A DNA stretch of 64,000 nucleotides. Origin: Stegostoma tigrinum (Eukaryota). The stretch spans positions 44,294,771 to 44,358,770 of the forward strand of contig NC_081380.1 of NCBI RefSeq assembly GCF_030684315.1, read 5' to 3'. Positions 5,619 to 59,561 of the stretch are shown piece by piece. The notes below the pieces were generated by a model. The model saw nothing but the letters and a program-made list of their open reading frames with translations. It was not told the DNA's origin and did no database searches. The translations under genes were made by a program, and so were the position numbers. Position 1 is the stretch's first letter. Every line of letters begins with the position of its first letter.

Positions 5619-6564
5619 TGTTACGAAGTTGGGTAGAGTATTCATGAATTGTCAGAATTTGTTGGTAAAAATGATCACGGGGAAAAGAGTGCCATGGACC
5701 CCATAAGAGCTTGTGCTTTGTCTGTGCTTGCAAGTTTATAAATGCAGGTGCACAGAGAGTGCCCGAATAGAAACATTTTGTATAGAACAGCCAAGTGGCA
5801 GTTTTTCCAAGTCAACAAGTTTGAATTTGGTCAATTAATTTAAATGATGCACCTAGATACAGAAATCCAATTGAATTTAAATCTGATGATGTTGACAACC
5901 TGAAACCAATCATATTAAAAGAATTTGATTGTTTCATTATGGGTATAAAAGGCAAGAGCATCTGGAAAATCAGAGAGAGCCAACTGCCATCTGAAAGCGA
6001 GAGCCATCCGCGACCTGCCAGAGATAGCACCACTCAGCTCTCAGGGAAAGCCCATCTAATTAATTAAAGATACTACTGTATTTTAGCTCAAAGTCCTCAA
6101 TGAAGAAATTACAGAGATGAAACATCCCTGACAGCAGAATTAGCGGAAGAAAGGTGTTTGTGAAGAGACCAGTGACGACAAAATATTCCAGAAGACAGTC
6201 TGTGCAAAACTTGGAGAGATTAAGTTATAATTTATTGCTTTTTATTAATTGGGATTATACTTGTGGGACTTAGAATTTAGACCAGTTAGGGAGTACTTAG
6301 TAGTCTAAGGTGGAATTGTTAGTTTGTTAGTAATTTTGTTAATTTGTTCATTGTTGGGTTAAATAAATAAATTGTTTCTTGTTACTTGATCAGAGATTTT
6401 CTTTCTTTTAATCACTCCTTTAATAGATTATGAGGGGAAAGACAAGCATCTTTGGGGTTTTCGGGGGTAATTATTAGAGGGAAACCCGTAAGCATGTCAT
6501 AATAGATTGGGGCTTGTGTTTTTGATTAATTATTGGAGATGTTCGGCTATTTCCCTTTGTAACA
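5619..6564 (+). mobile_element. Solo LTR (946 bp)
   Basis: TG...CA ends with inverted termini tgttacgaag / ctttgtaaca; flanks tgta / ttta (4-bp TSD, 1 mismatch); TATAAAA at ~5944 and AATAAA at ~6362; host CR1 resumes on both sides. Confidence 0.75.
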
Positions 6565-11699: not shown

Positions 11700-12175
11700 G
11701 GTGTTGTTTCCCATTCCTTCAAACACTGGGGAGACAAAACACAGACTGGGTGGCCACTTTGCAGAATACCTATGCGCTGTCTGTAAAAATGACGCCAAAC
11801 TTCCAGTTTCCTACCACCATGTTTCCAACACTTCTACCTTGGGCCTGTTGCAGTGTCACTGTGAGGCTCAGTGCAAACTATAAGAATAGTTTCTCATTTT
11901 CTGCTTGGAGAGCCTGCGGCCTTCAGGACTCAGTCCTAAGTCACACGACACCAGGTTATAGTCCAAAAGGTTTATTTGAAATCACAAGCTTTTGGAATGC
12001 TGCTTCACCTGATGAAGGAACAGTACTCTGAAAGCCTGTGTGACTTCTGACCTTATCAACCCTAATCCAACACTGGCACCTCCATATCCTTCAGGGCTCA
12101 GTATCGAATTCAATAACTTTTACATCCTGAGCACCACCTTCCATGTCCTTTACCCAACCCCACTCCCCAGGTCCA
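11700..12175 (+). mobile_element. Old Penelope-like GIY-YIG fragment, interrupted at 11935-12087
   Basis: TGETKHRLGGHFAEYL...LPVSYH...LGLLQC matches the EN C-terminus of the element at 28650-31294. Confidence 0.75.
11935..12087. mobile_element. Fold-back mini element, Penelope pLTR family C, with hammerhead-like core
   Basis: agtcacac...cacaagcttttgga / ctgatgaaggaacagtactctgaaagcctgtgtgact; flanked by ccttcaggactcagt (11920-11934) and ccttcagggctcagt (12088-12102). Confidence 0.7.
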
Positions 12176-15262: not shown

Positions 15263-15332
15263 CACTCTTGCCTCTCCCATATCTTTTACATATCTAAAAA
15301 GATATGTAAAAGATATGGGAGAGGCAAGAGTG
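15263..15332. repeat. Perfect inverted repeat, 33-bp arms, 4-nt loop
   Basis: cactcttgcctctcccatatcttttacatatct-aaaa-agatatgtaaaagatatgggagaggcaagagtg. Confidence 0.95.
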
Positions 15333-28239: not shown

Positions 28240-28648
28240 ATCCATCTTGGCACTCTCGACAGGTCTTCAGCACCTCAACCACCTTCAGCATCAATGTACA
28301 GTGGTATTAGTACTTACCATTTACAAGATGCACTGTAGAACTCACCAAGGCTTTTTGGACAGCATTGTAGCAATTCAGTTTTACCAACTAGAAGTCCAAG
28401 GGCAGCAGATACATGGCAGCCCCAACCCCTGAAAGTTCACCTCCTAGCTGCAAGTTATCTTGACTTGGAAATATATCACTGTTCCTTTGTTGTCACTGAG
28501 TCAAAATCCTGTGACTTCCTCCTCATATGCACTGCGAGTGCCCTACACCACATGAACCACAAAGGTTCAAATAAACAGCTCAGTTCCACAATTTCAAGGA
28601 CAATTACAGATGGCAATAAATGGTGCCCTAGCTAGCGATGCACACATA
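28240..28648 (+). mobile_element. 3' end of the second LINE family
   Basis: HLQHQCTVVLVLTIYKMHC and tail ggcaataaatggtgccctagctagcgatgc, homologous to 10100-10470. Confidence 0.7.
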
Positions 28649-28649
28649 C

Positions 28650-31294
28650 TCCATCCACAACCTCCACAGCCAGCAACCCCAGAGAAGACAGCCACATTGA
28701 GCCCTGCTGAATTTACACCATTCCCCGAGACCTCCCCCGACGGAAGACGAGCGGTCAGTCCTCAGCAAGGGGCTCACCTTTGACACCTTCCACCCTCCCC
28801 TCACGCATCAACAATTACCAGTCACGTCTGGACATTGAGCAGTTTTCCCGCCGCCTCCACCTCCACGCTTACTTCTCTAACCGGGAGCCTAACCCTCCCT
28901 CCACTGACCCCTTCACCCACCTCCAACACAAGTCCACCTCCTGGACACCACCCCCCGGGTCTCCTACCCTCCCTCGACCTCTTCAACTCCAACTGCTGTC
29001 GAGACATCAACTGCCTCAATCTCTCTACCCCTCTCACCCACTCCAACCTCTCCCCTGCAGAACGAGCAGCCCTCTGCTCCAATCCCAACCTCACCATCAA
29101 ACCCACAGACGAAGGAGGCGCAGTTGTAGGATGGCGCACTGACCTTTACATTGCTGAGGCTGGACGCCAACTTTCTGACACCACCTCTTACCGCCCCCTT
29201 GATCATGAACCTACCCCCGAGCACCAAACCATCATCTCCCAAACCATCCATGACCTCATCATCTCAGGTGACCTCCCATCCACAGCCTCCAACCTCATTG
29301 TTCCCCAACCCCGCACGGCCCGTTTCCATCTCCTTCCCAAAATCCACAAACCCGCCTGTCCTGGTCGACCTATTGTCTCAACCTGCTCCTGCCCCACTGA
29401 ACTCATCTCCACCTATCTGGACTCCATTTTCTCCCCCTTGGTCCAGGAACTCCTTACCTACATCTGTGACACCACCCACGCCCTCCACCTCCTCCAGAAC
29501 TTCCAATTCCCTGGTCCCCAACACCTCATTTTCACCTTGGACGTCCAGTCCCTATAGACCTGCATTCCCCATGCAGATGGCCTACAGGCCCTCTGCTTCT
29601 TCCTGTCCCGCAGACCTGACCAGTCCCCCTCCACCGACAACCTCATCCGCCGAGCCAAACTCGTCCTCACCCTCAACAACTTCTCTTTCGATTCATCCCA
29701 CTTCCTACAGACAAAGGGGGTGGCCATGGGTACCCGCATGGGCCCAAGCTATGCCTGCCTCTTTGTAGGTTACGTGGAACAGTCCCTCTTTCGCACCTAC
29801 ACTGGCCCTAAACCCCAACTCTGCCTCCGTTACATTACTGTATCGGCGCCACCTCATGCTCCCAAGAGGAGCTCAAACTGTTCATCCATTTCACCAACAC
29901 CCTCCACCCCAACCTTCAGTTCACCTGGACCATCTCCAATACATCCCTCACCTTCCTGGACCTCTCAGTCTCCATCTCGGGCAACCACCTACAAACCAAT
30001 GTCCATTTCAAGCCCACCGACTCTCACAGCTACCTGGAATACACCTTCTCCCACCCACATTCCTGCAAAAATTCCATCCCCTATTCCCAATTCCTTCGCC
30101 TCCACCGCATCTGCTCCCAGGATGAGGAATTCCACTCCTGTACATCCCAGATGTCCACGTTCTTCAAAGACCACAACTTTCCCACCGTAGTGGTCGAGAA
30201 CGCACTCAACCGTGTCTCCCGCATTTCCCGCACCTCATCCTTCACATCCCACCATAACCGCCAAAAGAGAATCCCCCTCATCCTCACATGCCACCCCACC
30301 AACCTCTGGATCAACGCATCATCCTCCGACACTTCCGCCATCTACAATCCGACCCCACAACTAAAGACATTTTTCCAACCCCACCCTTGTCTGCCTTCCA
30401 GAGAGACCACTCTCTCCGCGACTCCCTTGTCCGCTCCACACTCCCCTCCAACCCCACCACACTCGGCACTTTCCCCTGCAACCGCAGGAAGTGCTACACC
30501 TGCCCCCACACCTCCTCCCTCACCCCCATCCCAGGCCCCAAGATGACTTTCCACATCAAGCAGATGTTCACCTGCACATCCGCCAATGTGGTATACTGCA
30601 TCCGCTGTACCCGGTGTGGCTTCTTCTACATTGGGGAGACCAAGTGGAAGCTTGGGGACCGCTTTGCAGAACACCTATGCTCGGTTCACAATAAACAACT
30701 GCACCTCCCAGTCGCGAACCATTTCAACACCCTCTGCCAGTCCTGAGATGACATGTCCATCCTGGGCCTCCTGCAGTGCCATAATTATGCCATCCGTAGG
30801 TTGGAGGAACAGCAACTCATATTCTGCTTAGGAACCCTGCAGCCGAATGGTATTACTGTGGATTTCACCAGCTTCAAAATCTCCCCTCCCCGAATGCATC
30901 CCAAAACCAGCCCAGCTCGTCCCCGCCTCCCTAACCTGTTCTTCCTCTCACCTATCCCCTCCTCCTGCCTCAAGCCGCACCTCCATTTCCTACCTACTAA
31001 CCTCATCCCGCCCCCTTGACTTGTCCGTCCTCCCCGGACTGGCCTATTCCCTCCCTACCTCCCCACCCATAGTCTCCTCTCCTCCTATCTTCTCCTCTAT
31101 CCATCTTCAGTCCGCGCCCCCCACCTTTCCCTATTTATTTCAGAATCCTCTCCCCATCCCCCTTTTCTGACGAAGGGTCTAGGCCCGAAACGTCAGCTTT
31201 TGTGCTCCTAAGATGCTGCTTGGCCTGTTGTGTTCATCCAGCTCCACACTTTGTTATCTTGGATTCTCCAGCATCTGCAGTTCCCATTATCTCT
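28650..31294 (+). mobile_element. Near full-length Penelope-like retroelement (Neptune-type), RT + GIY-YIG, inactivated
   Basis: TIKPTDEGGAVV, LLPKIHKP..GRPIVS, FTLDVQSL*, QTKGVAMGTRMGPSYACLF, linker CNRRKCYTC, NVVYCIRC..YIGET..RFAEH; stops and frameshifts; catalytic DD missing after LRYI (~29836); 3' pLTR with hammerhead motif. Confidence 0.95.
31163..31199 (+). ncRNA. Minimal type I hammerhead ribozyme motif in the Penelope pLTR
   Basis: CTGACGA-A-GGGT(CTAG)GCCC-GAAA-CGTC at 31167-31194; palindromic ACGT helix III; helix I very short. Confidence 0.7.
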
Positions 31295-33674: not shown

Positions 33675-33875
33675 GACACAAAAGCAAAATTCCACAAATG
33701 CTGATGGAAATATTACATAAAAACTAAATAAAAGTGTTATCAACATACAGCAGATCTGGCAACATCTGAGGGAAAAGAAACAGAATTAACAATTTAAAAC
33801 TGTGATCCTTTTATCAATACCTTGACTTCTCACACTGCTTGACCTGCTGAGTATTTCCAACATTTTCTGTTTTAA
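33675..33875. mobile_element. Old fold-back Penelope pLTR remnant (family B)
   Basis: Inverted arm aaaagcaaaa..cagcagatctggcaacatctg..aacagaattaaca, then forward arm ctgcttgacctgctgagtatttccaacattttctgttt. Confidence 0.5.
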
Positions 33876-34340
33876 CTACTTTTATTGATGATTCCAAAAC
33901 AGACATCAACTTCCTCAAGATCACAAGTCCTTTTACAGGACAAGAGCTGAATTACTATAGCTCAATTGCTGTTTAATGGTCAATGAACATCTTGTTTCTT
34001 CCCATTTTGTGAAGTTGCAGCTTCTGTATGACTGCAAGTTGATCAAATAGCTCTCATCTTACAAAGTTTCGTCCTTTGCCCATGTATTGATCATTATGGT
34101 CTTTCTATCTCCAGTGGACTCAAACAGAACTTCCATATAGCTTCTTTGACTCAAAGTAACTGCAAGGAAACTTGGTTTCTGCTTTCAGCCAAAATGGCCT
34201 TTCCCCTTGATAATAATTAACTCTCCCTGAAGCTGATATCCAAACATCTACAAATTGATTTCTTTCCAAAACTGCCACAGTGTTCAGGGAGACTCTTTGA
34301 ACACCTCTCACTTCTTCACACCACCAACACAATACTCAAT

Positions 34341-34560
34341 ATAATAAAATGTGAGGCTGGGTGAACACAGCAGGCCAAGCAGCATCTCAGGAGCACAAAA
34401 GCTGACGTTTCGGGCCTAGACCCTTCATCTGATGAAGGGTCTAGGCCCGAAACGTCAGCTTTTGTGCTCCTGAGATGCTGCTTGGCCTGCTGTGTTCACC
34501 CAGCCTCACATTTTATTATCTTGGAATTCTCCAGCATCTGCAGTTCCCATTATCTCCTCT
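34341..34560. mobile_element. Perfect palindromic Penelope pLTR mini element (family A)
   Basis: 89-bp identical inverted arms 34341-34429 / 34431-34519, 1-nt spacer, ~40-nt tail; hammerhead motif 34429-34456; TSD acaatactcaatat 34329-34342 / 34561-34574. Confidence 0.95.
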
Positions 34561-35264
34561 ACAATACTCAATATGTATGGTTTGTTAGTGTTGAGGATTG
34601 CACACTGGAAAGAAAGAAGTAAACTCCACAGTCCTATGTAAATTTAAATTGATAAGCCCACAGGCAAAGAACATGCCTCTATGGAAATTCTGTTTAACAC
34701 AGCAGTAGAGATTGTCTCTTGTTGAGTTACCACCCCATGTGACTCAGCTGTTACTGAACTGTACTTTTAGCCCATTAGGAATCAGTATTCGGAGCATAAA
34801 AATCGAGTGTCATTCTTTATAATATTTCTGCATGATCTATTCAGCACCAGGCAACAATACTGCCTCAGTCTTTCCACAGAATGATCTGCTTGTTTCTTGG
34901 TCCTGGCTGTAACAAATAGTTACAGAGCCCATATTAACAGCTTTTGATTTCTACAAAAAAATTCCTCAATGAGACCAGTTTCTTACATTTTTTTCACACC
35001 CACACACCTCAGTACTATTTCATTTTTGTGACCTAGAATTAATCGTGGCCACAATACCCAACATCTTTGTGTCTTGCACTGAATTGGCTGATTTAATGGT
35101 ACATTATTGAAAAGATTTTATATTCACATACATGGAAAAAGATTTTATACTAAAACACTGTACAGACAGCAATCACAGCAGGCTACTTGGGTGCTTACTA
35201 GATTATGCAGGGAACCATCAGTTTCAAAATAGAACAGCAGAGAGATGAAGAGCTGTAGAATACT

Positions 35265-36317: not shown

Positions 36318-37060
36318 ACTTTCATTCGAACACAAGTGATGCCCATGGCTGGCTAGGCCAACATTCATTGTTCATCTCTACTTATCCTGGAAAAGGTGGT
36401 GGTGATAACACAGTGTGAAGCTGGAGGAACACAGCAGGCCAGGCAGCATCAGAGGAGCAGGAAAACTGATGTTTCAGGTTGGGACCCTTCTTCAGAAAAA
36501 AATTCTTGAAGACGGGTCCTGACCTGAAATGTCCGCTTTCCTGCTCCTCTGATGCTGCCTGGAGTGCTGTGTTTCTCTAGCTCCACACTATGTTATCTCG
36601 GAATCCAGCATCAGCAGTTCTTACTATCTCAAAGGTGGCGATGAGTTGCTTTCTTGAACTGCTGCACTCCTTGGGGTATTGGTTCACACACAATTCTTTT
36701 AGGTAAGGAGTTCTAGGATTTTAACCCAGCAGCAGTGAAGGAAAGATGGTTCCAAGTCAGGATGATAACTGGCTTGCAGGAAAATGTTCCTATGTACCTG
36801 CTTCCCTTGGGCTTCTAGATGGTAGAGCTTGTCGTTTAGGAAAGTGTTCTTGAAGAAGCCTTGGTGTGTTATTGCAGTGCATCTTGGTGGTGGAACACAC
36901 TGCTACCACTGTGTGACAGAGATGAAGGGAGTAAATTTTGAACATGATGGATGTGGTGCCAGTTAAGCATCTACTTTGCCCTAGATGGTGTAAACCTTCT
37001 TGAGTAATGGAGTTGTACTCACCCAGGCATGTGGGGAATATTTTATCACATTTACCTCTT
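36318..37060 (-). mobile_element. 3' end of the second LINE family, interrupted at 36404-36630
   Basis: SLHLCHTVVAVCSTTKMHC on the minus strand; tail homologous to 10380-10470. Confidence 0.7.
36404..36630. mobile_element. Palindromic Penelope pLTR mini element (family A variant, older)
   Basis: Diverged inverted arms meeting at ttcagaaaaaaattcttgaa; TSD aaaggtggtggtga 36392-36405 / aaaggtggcgatga 36631-36644. Confidence 0.9.
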
Positions 37061-39837: not shown

Positions 39838-42800
39838 TCATAGAAGCATAGAATTTACAGTACAGAAGGAGGTCACTCAACCCATCATGTCTGTAGTTGC
39901 TCCTCAAAGGGCTACTCAGCTCATCCCATTCTCCAGCCCTATTTCCATAGCCCTTTAATCATGTTCAAATATATATCTAATTGTCTTTTGAAAACTCATG
40001 TGGAATCTGCATCCACTACTCTTCCAGGTAGCTCATTCCAAATTCTAACAACTCTCTCTGAGTAAAGAAGTTTCTCCTCATCTCAATTCTAATCCTCTTG
40101 TTTATAATCTTGAAATTGTGACCCCTAGCTGCTGACATACTAACTAGTGGAAACAGAACATCTTCTTTACCCAATTAAAATTGTTCATAATTTTGGATAC
40201 TTCAGCAAGGTCATTGCTTAATCTTGTTGCTCAAAGGCTAATAAGCCCCAATTTCTCTAATCTTTCCTTGTATTTAAAACCCCTTATTCCTGCTTTCATT
40301 CTAGTAAATGCAATTCGTACTCTCTCCAGGGCTTTAGCATCCTTAAATAAGGTGCCCAAACTGACCACAACACCCCAAATGCGGTCTGATCAATGATTTG
40401 CAGAGATCCAGCATCACTTCCTTTCCTTTATATTCCATGTCCCTGTTTATAAACCCAAGGATCCTATTAGCCTTCTTAACAACTGTTTCAATTTTCCTGG
40501 CCACCTTCAGAGAATTACACAGGTGAACCCTGCGGTCCTTGCGCTCCTGTACTCTACTCAAAATTGTACCATTGACGTTACATTGTCTCTCCATGTTGCT
40601 TTTACCAAAGTACATTACCTCACAATTCTCTTCAATGAAATTTATCTGCCAGGTGACTTCCCATTTGGCCAACTTGTCAATGTTCCCCTGAAGTCGCTTT
40701 GCGTCATCCTCACAATTCACTATTGTCAGTAGCTTAGTATCATCTGTAAATTCAGCAAGTTTGCCCTGAACACCAAATCCAAATTGTTTACATAAATCAA
40801 AAAAAAACAACAGTCCCAACATCCATCCTCTGGGGAACTTCATTTTCAACATGTCTCCAAACTGACCCACTGACTGTCATCTAAACCTACCCTGTACTTC
40901 TTATCTTTTAGCTAACTACTAATCCACGCTGTCAAAGACTCGTCGATCCCAAACATTTCAAATTTGCTAACCGACCTGCCACATGGCACAGTATCAAATT
41001 TTCCGGAAGTCCAAATATACAACATCCACAGCACAACCCTCACCCATTGCCTGTGTCACCTTGTTAAAGAACTCAGTCAAATTTGTCAGATACAAATTTG
41101 TGTCAGGTTTCCCACTACTGACATCAAGCTGACAGGTCTGTAGTTTCCTGGGTTATTGTTTGCCCTTTTCTTAAACAATAGTGTCACATTTACAATCCTT
41201 CAGTCCCCAGGGCTAATCCTGGAAAATTTCTGTCAATGGCTCCGCAATTTGTTCCTTTACCTCTCTCAGCAATCTAGGATGCAGCCCATCAGACCTAGCA
41301 ACTTTTCTATCAGGTGTGTTGCCAATGTTTTAGCACCTGTTCTTGATCTTTCACTATACTGCTCGGTTGCTCAACATCCATATTTTAAATTAAGCCGTTG
41401 TCACCATTTTCCAATTTGGTAAAGATAAAAACAAGTACTTATTTAGTACTTCTGCCATATCCTTTACTTCAGTGAGCAGCTTATCCTGCTTGTTCCTTAT
41501 GGGTCTTACTCTATCTTTCACTAACCTTTTACCATTAATAGTTTGAAGAACATTTTACTATTTGTTTTAGCATAGTCTGCCTTCTGTTCCTCATGGTTCC
41601 TTTTAGCATTCCTCATTCCAGCCTTAGTGTCTATCCTATATTTGAGATATCCTTCCTAATTTTTATTGCTATTAATATTCCGGTATGCATCATACACCGC
41701 ATTTTTCTTCCTTATTTCTTATCAATATCTTTAGTCATCCAGGATACTCTAGTTTTGGATACCCGGTATTTATTTCCTGGGGGTATATACTTTGCTTGCA
41801 CTCTATTCATTATTCTTTTGAAATTCTCCCATTTTTCATCTGTCATTTTATCCACCAAAATGTGTTTCTGATCAACCTGCTCCAGTGTGACTTTTAGACC
41901 CCTAAAATATGTCCTTTTCCTGGATGGAATCTTTATCATTGACTGATTTTTATCCTTTTCCAACTTAATATTGAACCTAATTATATTATGATTGCTATTT
42001 CCCAAAGGCTCCCTCACTCTGGTGTTCTCCATTTGGCCTGTCTTATTCCATGGGAGCAGATCTAGAACAGCTTCCTCCCCACTATGACTGGAAACGTGCT
42101 GTTCCAGAAACTTCTCCTGCACTCACTTCAGGAATTTCTCCCCCTCCATGCCCCATGTGATACTTCCCCCCCCAGTCTACCCTATAGTAACTGAAATCAC
42201 CAACTATCATAACACTCCTTGTCCTGCAAATTCCCATAATCTCCCTAGACGTCTCTTCTACTTTCTTCCCACTATTTGGAGGTCTGTAATAAATACCCAA
42301 CAAAGTCGCTGCTACCTTTCTGTTTTTCACCTACAACCAGAGATTCTATTGCAGTAACTGGCAATGATACTATCTTTGACCAAGACTGTTGCACCTCCTC
42401 CCTTTTCACCCGCCCTGTTTCTACTAAAAGTCTTATAACCCAAGATTTTAAGTATTCAGATAACAAGGTGTTGATCTGGAAGAATGCAGCAGGCCAGGCA
42501 GCATCAGTGAAGCAGGAAAGCTGACGTCTCGGGTCTGGACCCTTCTTCAAATTTGCTAACCGATCTGCCACGTGACACAGTATCAAATTTTACGCAAGTC
42601 CAAACAAACAACATTCACAGCCTTCAGAAGAAGGGTCCAGGTCTGAAACATCGGCTTTCCTGTTCCTCTGATGCTGCCTGGCCTGCTGTGTTCATCCAGC
42701 TCTACACTTTGTTATCTCAGACTCCACATCAGCAGTTCCTATTATCTCTATGTTAAGTATGCAGTCCTGTTCTGGCGATGCTTCTGTCAATACTGCCATA

Positions 42801-45656: not shown

Positions 45657-46182
45657 GAGACAACAAAATGTGAAGATAATAAAATGTGAGGCTGGATGAA
45701 CACAGCAGGCCAAGCAGCATCCAAAACCAGCCCAGCCTGTCTCTGCCTCCCTAACCTGTTCTTCCTCTCACCCATCCCTTCCTCCCACCCCAAGCCGCAC
45801 CTCCATCTCCTACCTACTAACCTCATCCCACCTCCTTGACCTGTCCATCTTCCCTGGACTGACCTATCCCCTCCCTACCTCCCCACCTATACTCTCCTCT
45901 CCACCTATCTTCTTTACTCACCATCTTCGGTCCGCCTCCCCCTCTCTCCCTATTTATTCCAGTTCCCTCCCCCCATCCCCCTCTCTGATGAAGGGTCTAG
46001 GCCCGAAACGTCAGCTTTTGTGCTCCTGAGATGCTGCTGGGCCTGCTGTCTTCATCCAGCTTCACACTTTATTCTCTTGGATTCTCCAGCATCTGCAGTC
46101 CCCCATTATCACTAGGCCAAGCAGCATCTCAGGAGCACAAATACTGACGTTTCGGGCCTAGACCCTTCAGCCGAGACCCTTC
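45657..46182. mobile_element. Composite Penelope pLTR insertion (forward copy inside an inverted copy)
   Basis: Outer TSD atcttgaagaaaa 45644-45656 / 46183-46195; inner duplication aggccaagcagcatc 45707-45721 / 46114-46128; intact hammerhead motif 45985-46012. Confidence 0.88.
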
Positions 46183-47076: not shown

Positions 47077-47292
47077 AAATAAAAGCAAAATACTATAGGT
47101 TCCAGAAATCTGAAATAAAAACAGGAAATGCTTCAGAAACTCAGCAGGTTGGGCAGCATCGGTGATGAGAGAAACAGCATTAACATTTTGAGTCTGATCT
47201 GACTCTTCTTCAGAACTAACTCAAACATGCTGGATTTGAAATGTTAACTCTTCTTCTCTCTCCATAGTCGAGTTTCTTCAGCATTCTGAATT
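47077..47292. mobile_element. Old fold-back Penelope pLTR remnant (family B)
   Basis: Inverted arm ending ttgagtctgatctgactcttcttcagaact (rev. comp. CTGAAGA-A-GAGTC..GACTC), then short forward arm gaaatgttaactc..ctctctcca. Confidence 0.6.
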
Positions 47293-47534
47293 TATACGAG
47301 CTAAATACTTGCTTGACAAAACATTTTCTGTTGCCTTTGAACATCTAAAAATATCAGCAACAACCAAAAACGAATCCTTAGATATGAATTTAGCTGTCAA
47401 CACTGAGCAACACTGTATGGAACAAAAATACTCCATAAGAGAGGCAATCAAAAACAAGGCATAGAAATTAATCATCTGTGGTGGTGCAAACAGGAGCTAT
47501 TGGATCAATTGCCTGTTACTCCAGCATCTGATAG

Positions 47535-59367: not shown

Positions 59368-59561
59368 AAGATAACAAAGTGTGAAGCTGGATGAACACAG
59401 CAGGCCAAGCAGCATCTCAGGAGCACAAAAGCTGACGTTTCGGGCCTAGACCCTTCGTCAGAGCTCTCTGATGAAGGGTTTAGGCCCGAAACGTCAGCTT
59501 TTGTGCTCCTGGGATGCTGCTGGGCCTGCTGTGTTCATCCAGCCTCACATTTTACAATCTT
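59368..59561. mobile_element. Palindromic Penelope pLTR mini element with two hammerhead motifs
   Basis: Minus motif 59434-59461 (CTGACGA..GAAACGTC), plus motif 59468-59495, 6-nt spacer; possible TSD tacttact / tacttgct. Confidence 0.93.

Follow-up and report, generated by a model that had tools for sequence, protein, structure and literature searches.

The question raised by this locus is whether a short palindrome built around a ribozyme represents a mobile element class of its own, or a product that an already known type of element makes anew at each site. The insertion lies at 34329..34574 of the window (the whole stretch of 64,000 nucleotides that was analysed) and comprises 246 bases in a mirror-image arrangement, with a palindrome of about 89+1+89 nt, a one-sided tail and a TSD. 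The sequence-only reading had proposed that such insertions, derived from the pLTRs of Penelope-like elements (PLEs), could form a self-propagating MITE-like or retrozyme-like class. We found that the feature is real and abundant, and that it represents a known insertion structure in minimal form rather than a mobile element class of its own. Head-to-head insertions of a Neptune-type PLE vary continuously in size, and the focal element is among the shortest of them. It is likely that the insertion is made anew at each site and is neither a MITE nor a retrozyme.

The insertion opens with a 14-bp TSD copy on the + strand (34329..34342), identical to the copy at its right end (34561..34574, + strand). 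A tail-less inverted pLTR arm on the - strand (34341..34429) spans element positions of about +1 to +91, is perfect over 89 bp and has a broken hammerhead core, CAGAUGA. The junction, which we call J1, consists of a single T at 34430 to which no strand is assigned, and is followed by the direct pLTR arm on the + strand (34431..34519), also perfect over 89 bp. The tail occupies 41 nt of the + strand (34520..34560) and appears to be bounded by two RT starts, at about +92 and at about +126 or slightly beyond. The palindrome, the one-sided tail of about 40 nt and the exact 14-bp TSD were therefore as first described. The site was found empty in the related organism B, in which one contig joins 34343 to 34576 without the insert, as the proposed empty-site check had anticipated, and contigs of organism A (possibly the assembly's own sample) bridge both flank-element junctions. 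Therefore, we conclude that the focal element is a true insertion.

Element coordinates are given with 0 at the C of CUGANGA, and the predicted cut falls between +27 and +28. A minimal type I hammerhead motif was found on the + strand at 34429..34456, with CUGAUGA, an extra A, a stem II of 4-5 bp and GAAA-CG-UC, and with its predicted cut after 34456; the centre of the palindrome, 34430, is the U of this CUGAUGA. A relaxed hammerhead motif (focal match 34429-34453) occurred 10 times in the window versus 1.43 expected. A stricter minimal-hammerhead descriptor was run on an unbiased sample of 1.064 Mb, made up of the window and ten blocks of 100 kb placed arbitrarily on ten contigs, and gave 60 matches versus 0 in each of five doublet shuffles, which supports the minimal hammerhead ascribed to the pLTR. 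The core, the extra nucleotide, stem II and the palindromic 15.2-16.2 of PLE minimal hammerheads were all present, and stem II was kept across subfamilies. Against the 4-5 bp of the PLE type, stem I measures 3-5 bp in family B, 2 bp in family A and 1 bp in the focal copy; 2 bp is also the length given for the D. virilis hammerhead in the relevant passage of PMC4209133. The Rfam scan of the 64-kb window gave no match to a hammerhead family, and the hammerhead was not formed in the minimum-energy fold of a single-arm RNA. In the focal copy the core is intact in the right arm only, and a through-transcript folds as one 88-bp hairpin that buries the ribozyme; the focal copy is thus no working ribozyme cassette. 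A fourth hammerhead family, with a long stem II and the sequence CUGAUGAUGUU..., was seen at 5883-5906 of the window and in three matches of the sample, and lies outside families A, B and C.

A pLTR of the focal type terminates an intact ORF of 1046 aa with the order RT-CxxC-GIY-YIG (locus L221). This ORF matched the Pfam families RVT_1 (E 6e-6) and GIY-YIG (E 0.003), both below the curated cut-offs, and a CxxC-type Zn-finger-like linker between RT and EN was read in its translation; such a linker is described as a feature of EN+ Penelope-like elements in passages of PMC8557442. In the window the same pLTR, with its tail, ends a decayed and 5'-truncated parent-type element on the + strand (28640..31293, start approximate) that retains remnants of RT, CxxC linker and GIY-YIG. 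These two elements bear out the Penelope origin claimed for the pLTR. By its predicted protein the parent is an EN+ Penelope-like element, Neptune-type in terms of domain layout and CxxC linker only. The ORF begins about 160 nt downstream of the hammerhead core. In body-bearing copies the tail sequence runs on into the 5' region of the ORF, and several of these copies begin at -4 to -8 or bear a short inverted arm at the head; we infer that the long transcript unit, too, begins with the pLTR core and tail. At L221 the 5' pLTR of the intact ORF has been replaced by rearranged body sequence, and a 426-aa ORF lies upstream (560-1840), which we take to resemble a CR1/L2-type reverse transcriptase. 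Partial tandems, each made of a pLTR, 250-350 bp of ORF start and a second pLTR starting at about -8 to -3 from the core, were seen at L201, L207, L208, L216, L218 and L220; their junctions differ, and they look like template jumps from an RNA 5' end onto another RNA.

The sample contained 183 family A arms, arranged as 46 head-to-head pairs and 91 solo arms, with 3 tail-to-tail neighbours as a control; family C was represented by 17 matches. Exactly one tail was present in 43 of the 46 head-to-head pairs, none in 3 and two in 0 (p 2e-10). The 3' ends of the arms are bimodal, at +90 to +93 (about +92) and +124 to +126 (about +126). Pair size forms a continuum from about 140 bp to more than 2 kb, and the length classes of the two arms are matched (32 short-short, 11 long-long and 3 mixed). 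Short pairs occur at 28 per Mb outside the window, which extrapolates, for this one family, to about 9x10^4 genome-wide (Poisson 6-13x10^4). Palindromes with tails on both arms were clear in two cases (L160 and L234) among 91 junction-selected loci.

A peak of arm 5' ends lies immediately upstream of the hammerhead core. Of 124 arms at risk, 55 end at +2 to -8; between -9 and -33 the figure is 0 of 69. BLAST ends, which in old copies are imprecise by several bases, gave a per-base probability of a 5' end of 0.5% from +45 to +13, 1.8% from +12 to +3 and 4.0% from +2 to -8, then 0 from -9 to -33 and 0.1-0.2% beyond. The peak is equal in solo (27/91) and paired (28/92) arms, which places the cause of the stop in the template and not in palindrome formation. 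Among 27 short pairs with a gap of <=30, the centre fell at -8 to +6 in 16, further 3' (to +42) in 10 and further 5' in 1. The centres therefore cluster at the ribozyme, as first described; the narrower statement that they lie at or just 5' of its core holds for the 16 and fails for the others. Two apparent stops elsewhere were dropped. Ends near +410 in the body vary from copy to copy and had been selected for by the query, and 5' ends at -283 to -287 arose from a reference copy without one repeat unit.

Copies that read through this point have C at -5 almost without exception, and 7120 A1 copies start at -4 with a base other than C before it. In the first 100 of these 7120 listed, the base at -5 was G in 70, T in 22 and A in 8 by hand count, at a background G of 25%; in A1 rows whose flank was judged by hand sort to be unrelated to the element, it was G in 25 of 42. 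Hand counts of 100 listed rows each gave G 55, A 30 and T 15 in family B, and G 35, A 47 and T 18 in A2, in which the G excess is weak (p 0.02) and many rows with A at -5 represent a microhomology junction. A control one base further in is confounded by subfamily variants at -4; in it G was counted by hand in about 27 of the 64 rows without read-through (position given as -4 or -5), and G at -5 occurred together with every one of these variants. The untemplated 5' G of retroposed copies has been attributed to copying of the cap (in passages of PMC3287187). Position -4 also resembles a transcription start: in A1 it is C+1 of a perfect TCT motif, YC+1TYTYY, as in the human-type consensus given in part of PMC5580651, and in A2 and B it is A+1 of an Inr-like word, compared with the BBCA+1BW given in part of PMC5287114. 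In family B, -4 is also the first base of the 4-bp stem I. The main cluster of centres is likely set by a capped RNA start 4 nt before the core and not by the ribozyme itself. The proposal that cDNAs end at the ribozyme would then apply to a second, smaller cluster at the predicted cut site, and not to the main one.

Identical junctions recur at unrelated loci, as had been proposed: J1 at 1071 loci, J2, in which both arms reach to -4, at 888, and a third, J3, at about 880, counts that are only roughly comparable because pattern stringency differs among J1-J6. We examined the first 50 J1 and the first 21 J2 loci among the matches listed, all on contig C1. Relative to the tail, the central base of J1 was T in 24 and A in 23 of the 47 orientable loci, about 1:1, 2 of the remainder being tail-less and 1 ambiguous. 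Where the gap was <=30 and the two arms of a pair differed in length by >=5 nt, the longer arm was the tail arm in 14 and the tail-less arm in 14. J1 and J2 share one range of haplotypes, as typed at five diagnostic sites in the 67 orientable loci. Within a locus the two arms agreed at 290 of 312 diagnostic sites, versus a concordant fraction of mean 0.59 and maximum 0.69 after shuffling, and complete haplotypes agreed between arms in 43 of 57. Evidently, each locus derives mostly from one source, and the type of junction is independent of the source. TSDs were 10-17 bp in 57 of 67 loci, with a range of 6-17 and a mode of 13-14. At many loci, the focal one included (ACAAT), the first bases of the TSD match the element sequence after the tail, which suggests that priming may be assisted by microhomology at variable points from +126 to +137.

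The model that best fits these data, and which we regard as probable, is that two internal primings take place on one RNA, with run-off at its 5' end and annealing of the cDNA ends. The RNA would start, capped, about 4 nt before the hammerhead core, and the enzyme would prime two cDNAs on the two nicked target strands, one from about +126 to give the tail arm and the other from about +92 to give the tail-less arm, usually on the same RNA. Priming in the 5' pLTR copy of the RNA would leave only about 95-130 nt to copy, in the manner of strong-stop DNA. The cap would be copied as an extra C, read as G at -5. The two cDNA 3' ends would join by 1-5 bp of self-complementarity, with trimming, to give the recurrent junctions: in J2 both cDNAs would end at -4 plus C and GC would pair with GC, and in J1 TCAGA would pair with TCAGA around an A-A mismatch, leaving either central base. 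A minority of templates would be cut by the ribozyme and yield palindromes centred at +28, and the palindromic product would likely be a dead end. Start site, cap and cleavage are in this scheme inferred from DNA copies only, and a palindrome may lose part of its tip once inserted or during assembly.

A smaller, second cluster of junctions coincides with the predicted ribozyme cut. With matched patterns there were 2712 apparent starts at +28 versus 243 at +30. About two thirds of the +28 starts are J3, centred on AGCT at +28 to +31, which was confirmed at 31 of the 50 loci listed of 1417; the corresponding figure for the self-complement ACGT was 2 of 50. The G excess seen at -5 was absent before +28, where hand sorting gave G in 3 of 18 rows; a 5'-OH end would be expected to lack it. 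We put hammerhead cleavage in vivo at about even odds from these copies. The 2-bp stem I of family A and the possibility of later tip loss count against it. In passages of an in vitro study of an anole element of another clade (PMC11167929), cleavage was unnecessary and no RNA-seq reads started or ended at the cut. In one block of C6 (40196-40396, L065) two tandem copies both start exactly at +28, with the tail joined to the cut site.

The alternative that survives best, possible but distinctly less probable than the full model, keeps the two primings and attributes J1, and above all J3, to subsequent loss of the palindrome tip by deletion between short direct repeats; J3 would then say nothing on ribozyme cleavage. 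Across a palindrome, any self-complementary word recurs in direct orientation, and symmetric deletion would likewise yield 1:1 polarity and J3-type junctions. Tip loss has occurred at one ancestral site, as loci L008 and L016 have flanks 99% identical and differ at the centre by 12 nt, absent from L008, and J1 arms are slightly older than J2 arms (1.87 versus 0.95 arm differences). Against this, CTAG, GGCC and ACGT lie nearer the tip and are several-fold rarer than J3; in the first ~51 Mb of C1 there were 19 J3 loci, 3 with CTAG and 2-5 with GGCC, at differing stringency. The 20 J3 loci retrieved are young, with on average 1.1 differences between the arms and none in 9 of them; they are of several haplotypes and have a single tail in 19 of 20, and +28 starts remain about 3-fold above +30 after removal of J3-like rows (hand estimate).

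Fold-back or self-priming, in which a cDNA (or antisense RNA, as proposed by Arkhipova et al. 2013; part of PMC3846280) reaches the RNA end and copies itself, with trimming by the endonuclease at the tail boundary, is rather unlikely. It is the reading of PLE junction palindromes published in passages of PMC3846280, the tail being taken as a product of endonuclease resolution in part of PMC8557442, and it would explain both the arm concordance at 290 of 312 sites and the matched arm lengths. It predicts, however, that the tail arm is always longer and that loop polarity is fixed, and the observed 14:14 and 24:23 speak against it as the main route. The loops of J1, J2 and J3 are 0-1 nt; a loop of this size is sterically too short for an intramolecular hairpin. 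Further, a pair at 59368..59561 (no strand assigned) has no tail on either side and has arms of two subfamilies, which differ at 4 of 5 diagnostic sites and represent two different common haplotypes. This pair therefore needs two templates.

A self-propagating non-autonomous family of MITE or retrozyme kind, in which a palindromic master would multiply as a unit after transcription or excision, is very improbable, and this part of the original proposal found no support. High copy number, the junctions shared by hundreds of loci and 25 copies of equal score would be expected of it, but each junction occurs on many haplotypes that are also found with other junction types, J1 polarity is 1:1, the longer arm is on either side equally often, and short pairs in the random sample mostly differ in junction and grade into kilobase pairs. 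TSD length is variable, unlike that of DNA transposons, and the hairpin of the through-transcript buries the ribozyme. The equal-score copies were rejected as a young family, as the 15 fetched share whole 3.2-kb flanks (one was aligned over 2.6 kb) and represent a single locus within a repeat unit no shorter than 3.2 kb; they are thus passengers in a larger repeat. This unit (L016-L030 and L008, plus 10 more equal-score matches) is present on many contigs at >99% identity and has Penelope body-like sequence around the mini-palindrome. Recurrent identical junctions do not, then, prove a propagating family. In a weaker form, short copies with the -4 start could supply the RNA and the palindrome be rebuilt each time; against this, the enzyme of the anole element required RNA reaching about 55 nt past its start sites (part of PMC11167929), a stretch that short copies lack. 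That the focal palindrome is an assembly or library artefact has a negligible chance: library preparation can create perfect palindromes and no short-read contig of organism A bridges the centre, but the exact TSD, the one-sided tail, the empty site in organism B, the read contigs across both junctions and diverged sister copies numbering in thousands count against it.

EN+ PLE insertions that combine an inverted pLTR with a tail, a TSD and a palindromic junction are already described in passages of PMC3846280, PMC8557442, PMC8969392 and PMC2377424. The insertions studied here share with them the head-to-head inverted pLTR, the optional tail of 30-40 bp at one end, the TSD, the junction palindrome, the hammerhead in the pLTR, and a parent ORF with RT, CxxC linker and C-terminal GIY-YIG in the Neptune-type layout. 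They differ in that the whole insertion consists of two pLTR stubs of about 140-250 bp, at about 28 per Mb, and in having two defined centre positions, a G-marked start at -4 and the cut at +28; the data also favour two primings, where the published reading is self-priming. A mechanistic parallel is PAc Poseidon of Anolis, in which, according to passages of PMC11167929, both strands are extended in vitro, two internal RT starts bound the tail and the hammerhead lies near the 5' region of the RNA. That element belongs to another clade and its ORF starts within the ribozyme, not about 160 nt downstream of the core, and the same passages leave its inverted products unexplained and give no in vivo sign of cleavage. 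The extra nucleotide before stem II, the G-C first pair and the palindromic 15.2-16.2 agree with metazoan PLE minimal hammerheads, and stem I is short in both, as described in part of PMC4209133; there, opposite-strand hammerhead pairs 100-700 bp apart are dealt with in a single sentence that offers neither a mechanism nor a map of junctions.

Non-LTR retrozymes are likewise small, non-coding, of hammerhead type I and kin to PLE pLTRs (parts of PMC7229834 and bioRxiv 10.64898/2026.07.22.740005). According to the same sources they are, however, direct tandem repeats, each with a hammerhead, that give rise to circular RNA, whereas we found dispersed inverted pairs with TSDs. As in L1 twin priming, the second priming would be from the opposite target end and the inversion junction has microhomology, but L1 cDNAs copy adjacent, non-overlapping parts of the RNA (passages of PMC11702581), whereas here both would copy the same stretch and give a palindrome. 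L1 also has an untemplated cap-derived G at full-length 5' ends (part of PMC3287187). Our insertions are short and non-coding, and have inverted repeats, a TSD and a high copy number. MITEs have the same five properties. The likeness ends there, since no transposase partner was found or is needed, the unit is not copied whole with an inherited junction, the TSD is variable and not of fixed length, and the ends are asymmetric, with signatures of RNA ends, and are not symmetric TIRs. Palindromes of this abundance will be filed as MITEs in annotation, and the units may be catalogued in Repbase or Dfam.

Both the formation of the inverted terminal structure of PLEs and in vivo cutting by their hammerheads are stated as open in passages of PMC3846280, PMC8557442, PMC4209133 and PMC11167929, and the value of the mini-palindromes is as evidence on this mechanism. 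Our literature search (Repbase, Dfam and subscription papers lay outside it) found no report of a cap-derived G, a G-marked start or palindromes centred on the cut site in PLEs. The testable answer given by the junction statistics is that priming occurs twice, that the cDNAs run off at a capped start at -4, and that a further end exists at +28. That the mini-palindromes record Penelope replication as a natural map in all its parts, with an inverted pLTR of PLEs formed by two RTs that prime within one RNA and meet where it begins, a cap at -4 and germline integration of ribozyme-cut RNA, has in our view slightly less than an even chance; if true, they would be genomic evidence of in vivo cleavage by a minimal PLE hammerhead.

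The window also contains, at 15263-15332, an unrelated inverted repeat that is perfect over 33 bp and closed by a loop of 4 nt; Rfam gave microRNA-like matches to this hairpin, all below the gathering score. The recurrence of the focal architecture at six further sites in the window held in that all are inverted pairs, and in one case completely: a mini-palindrome of the older subfamily A2 on the + strand at 36404..36630, with its tail at the right. The others deviate. An A2 head-to-head pair on the + strand (42458..42748), also with its tail at the right, has a unique non-element spacer of 78 nt. The pair at 59368 is tail-less and of two subfamilies, as given above. The family C pair at 11935..12090 (end approximate, + strand, TSD about 15 bp) has an internally deleted right arm. 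The family B pairs at 47077..47300 (- strand) and 33675..33890 (no strand assigned), both with approximate ends, are decayed, the latter so strongly that its centre is unreadable. An asymmetric pair was also found on the + strand at 45673..46110, with a short inverted arm from +45 and a long arm from -271 that bears the tail. The tail of a long copy is followed at 45982-46176 by a short piece of the arm in inverted orientation (about +5 to +60); the sample contains few such tail-to-tail cases.
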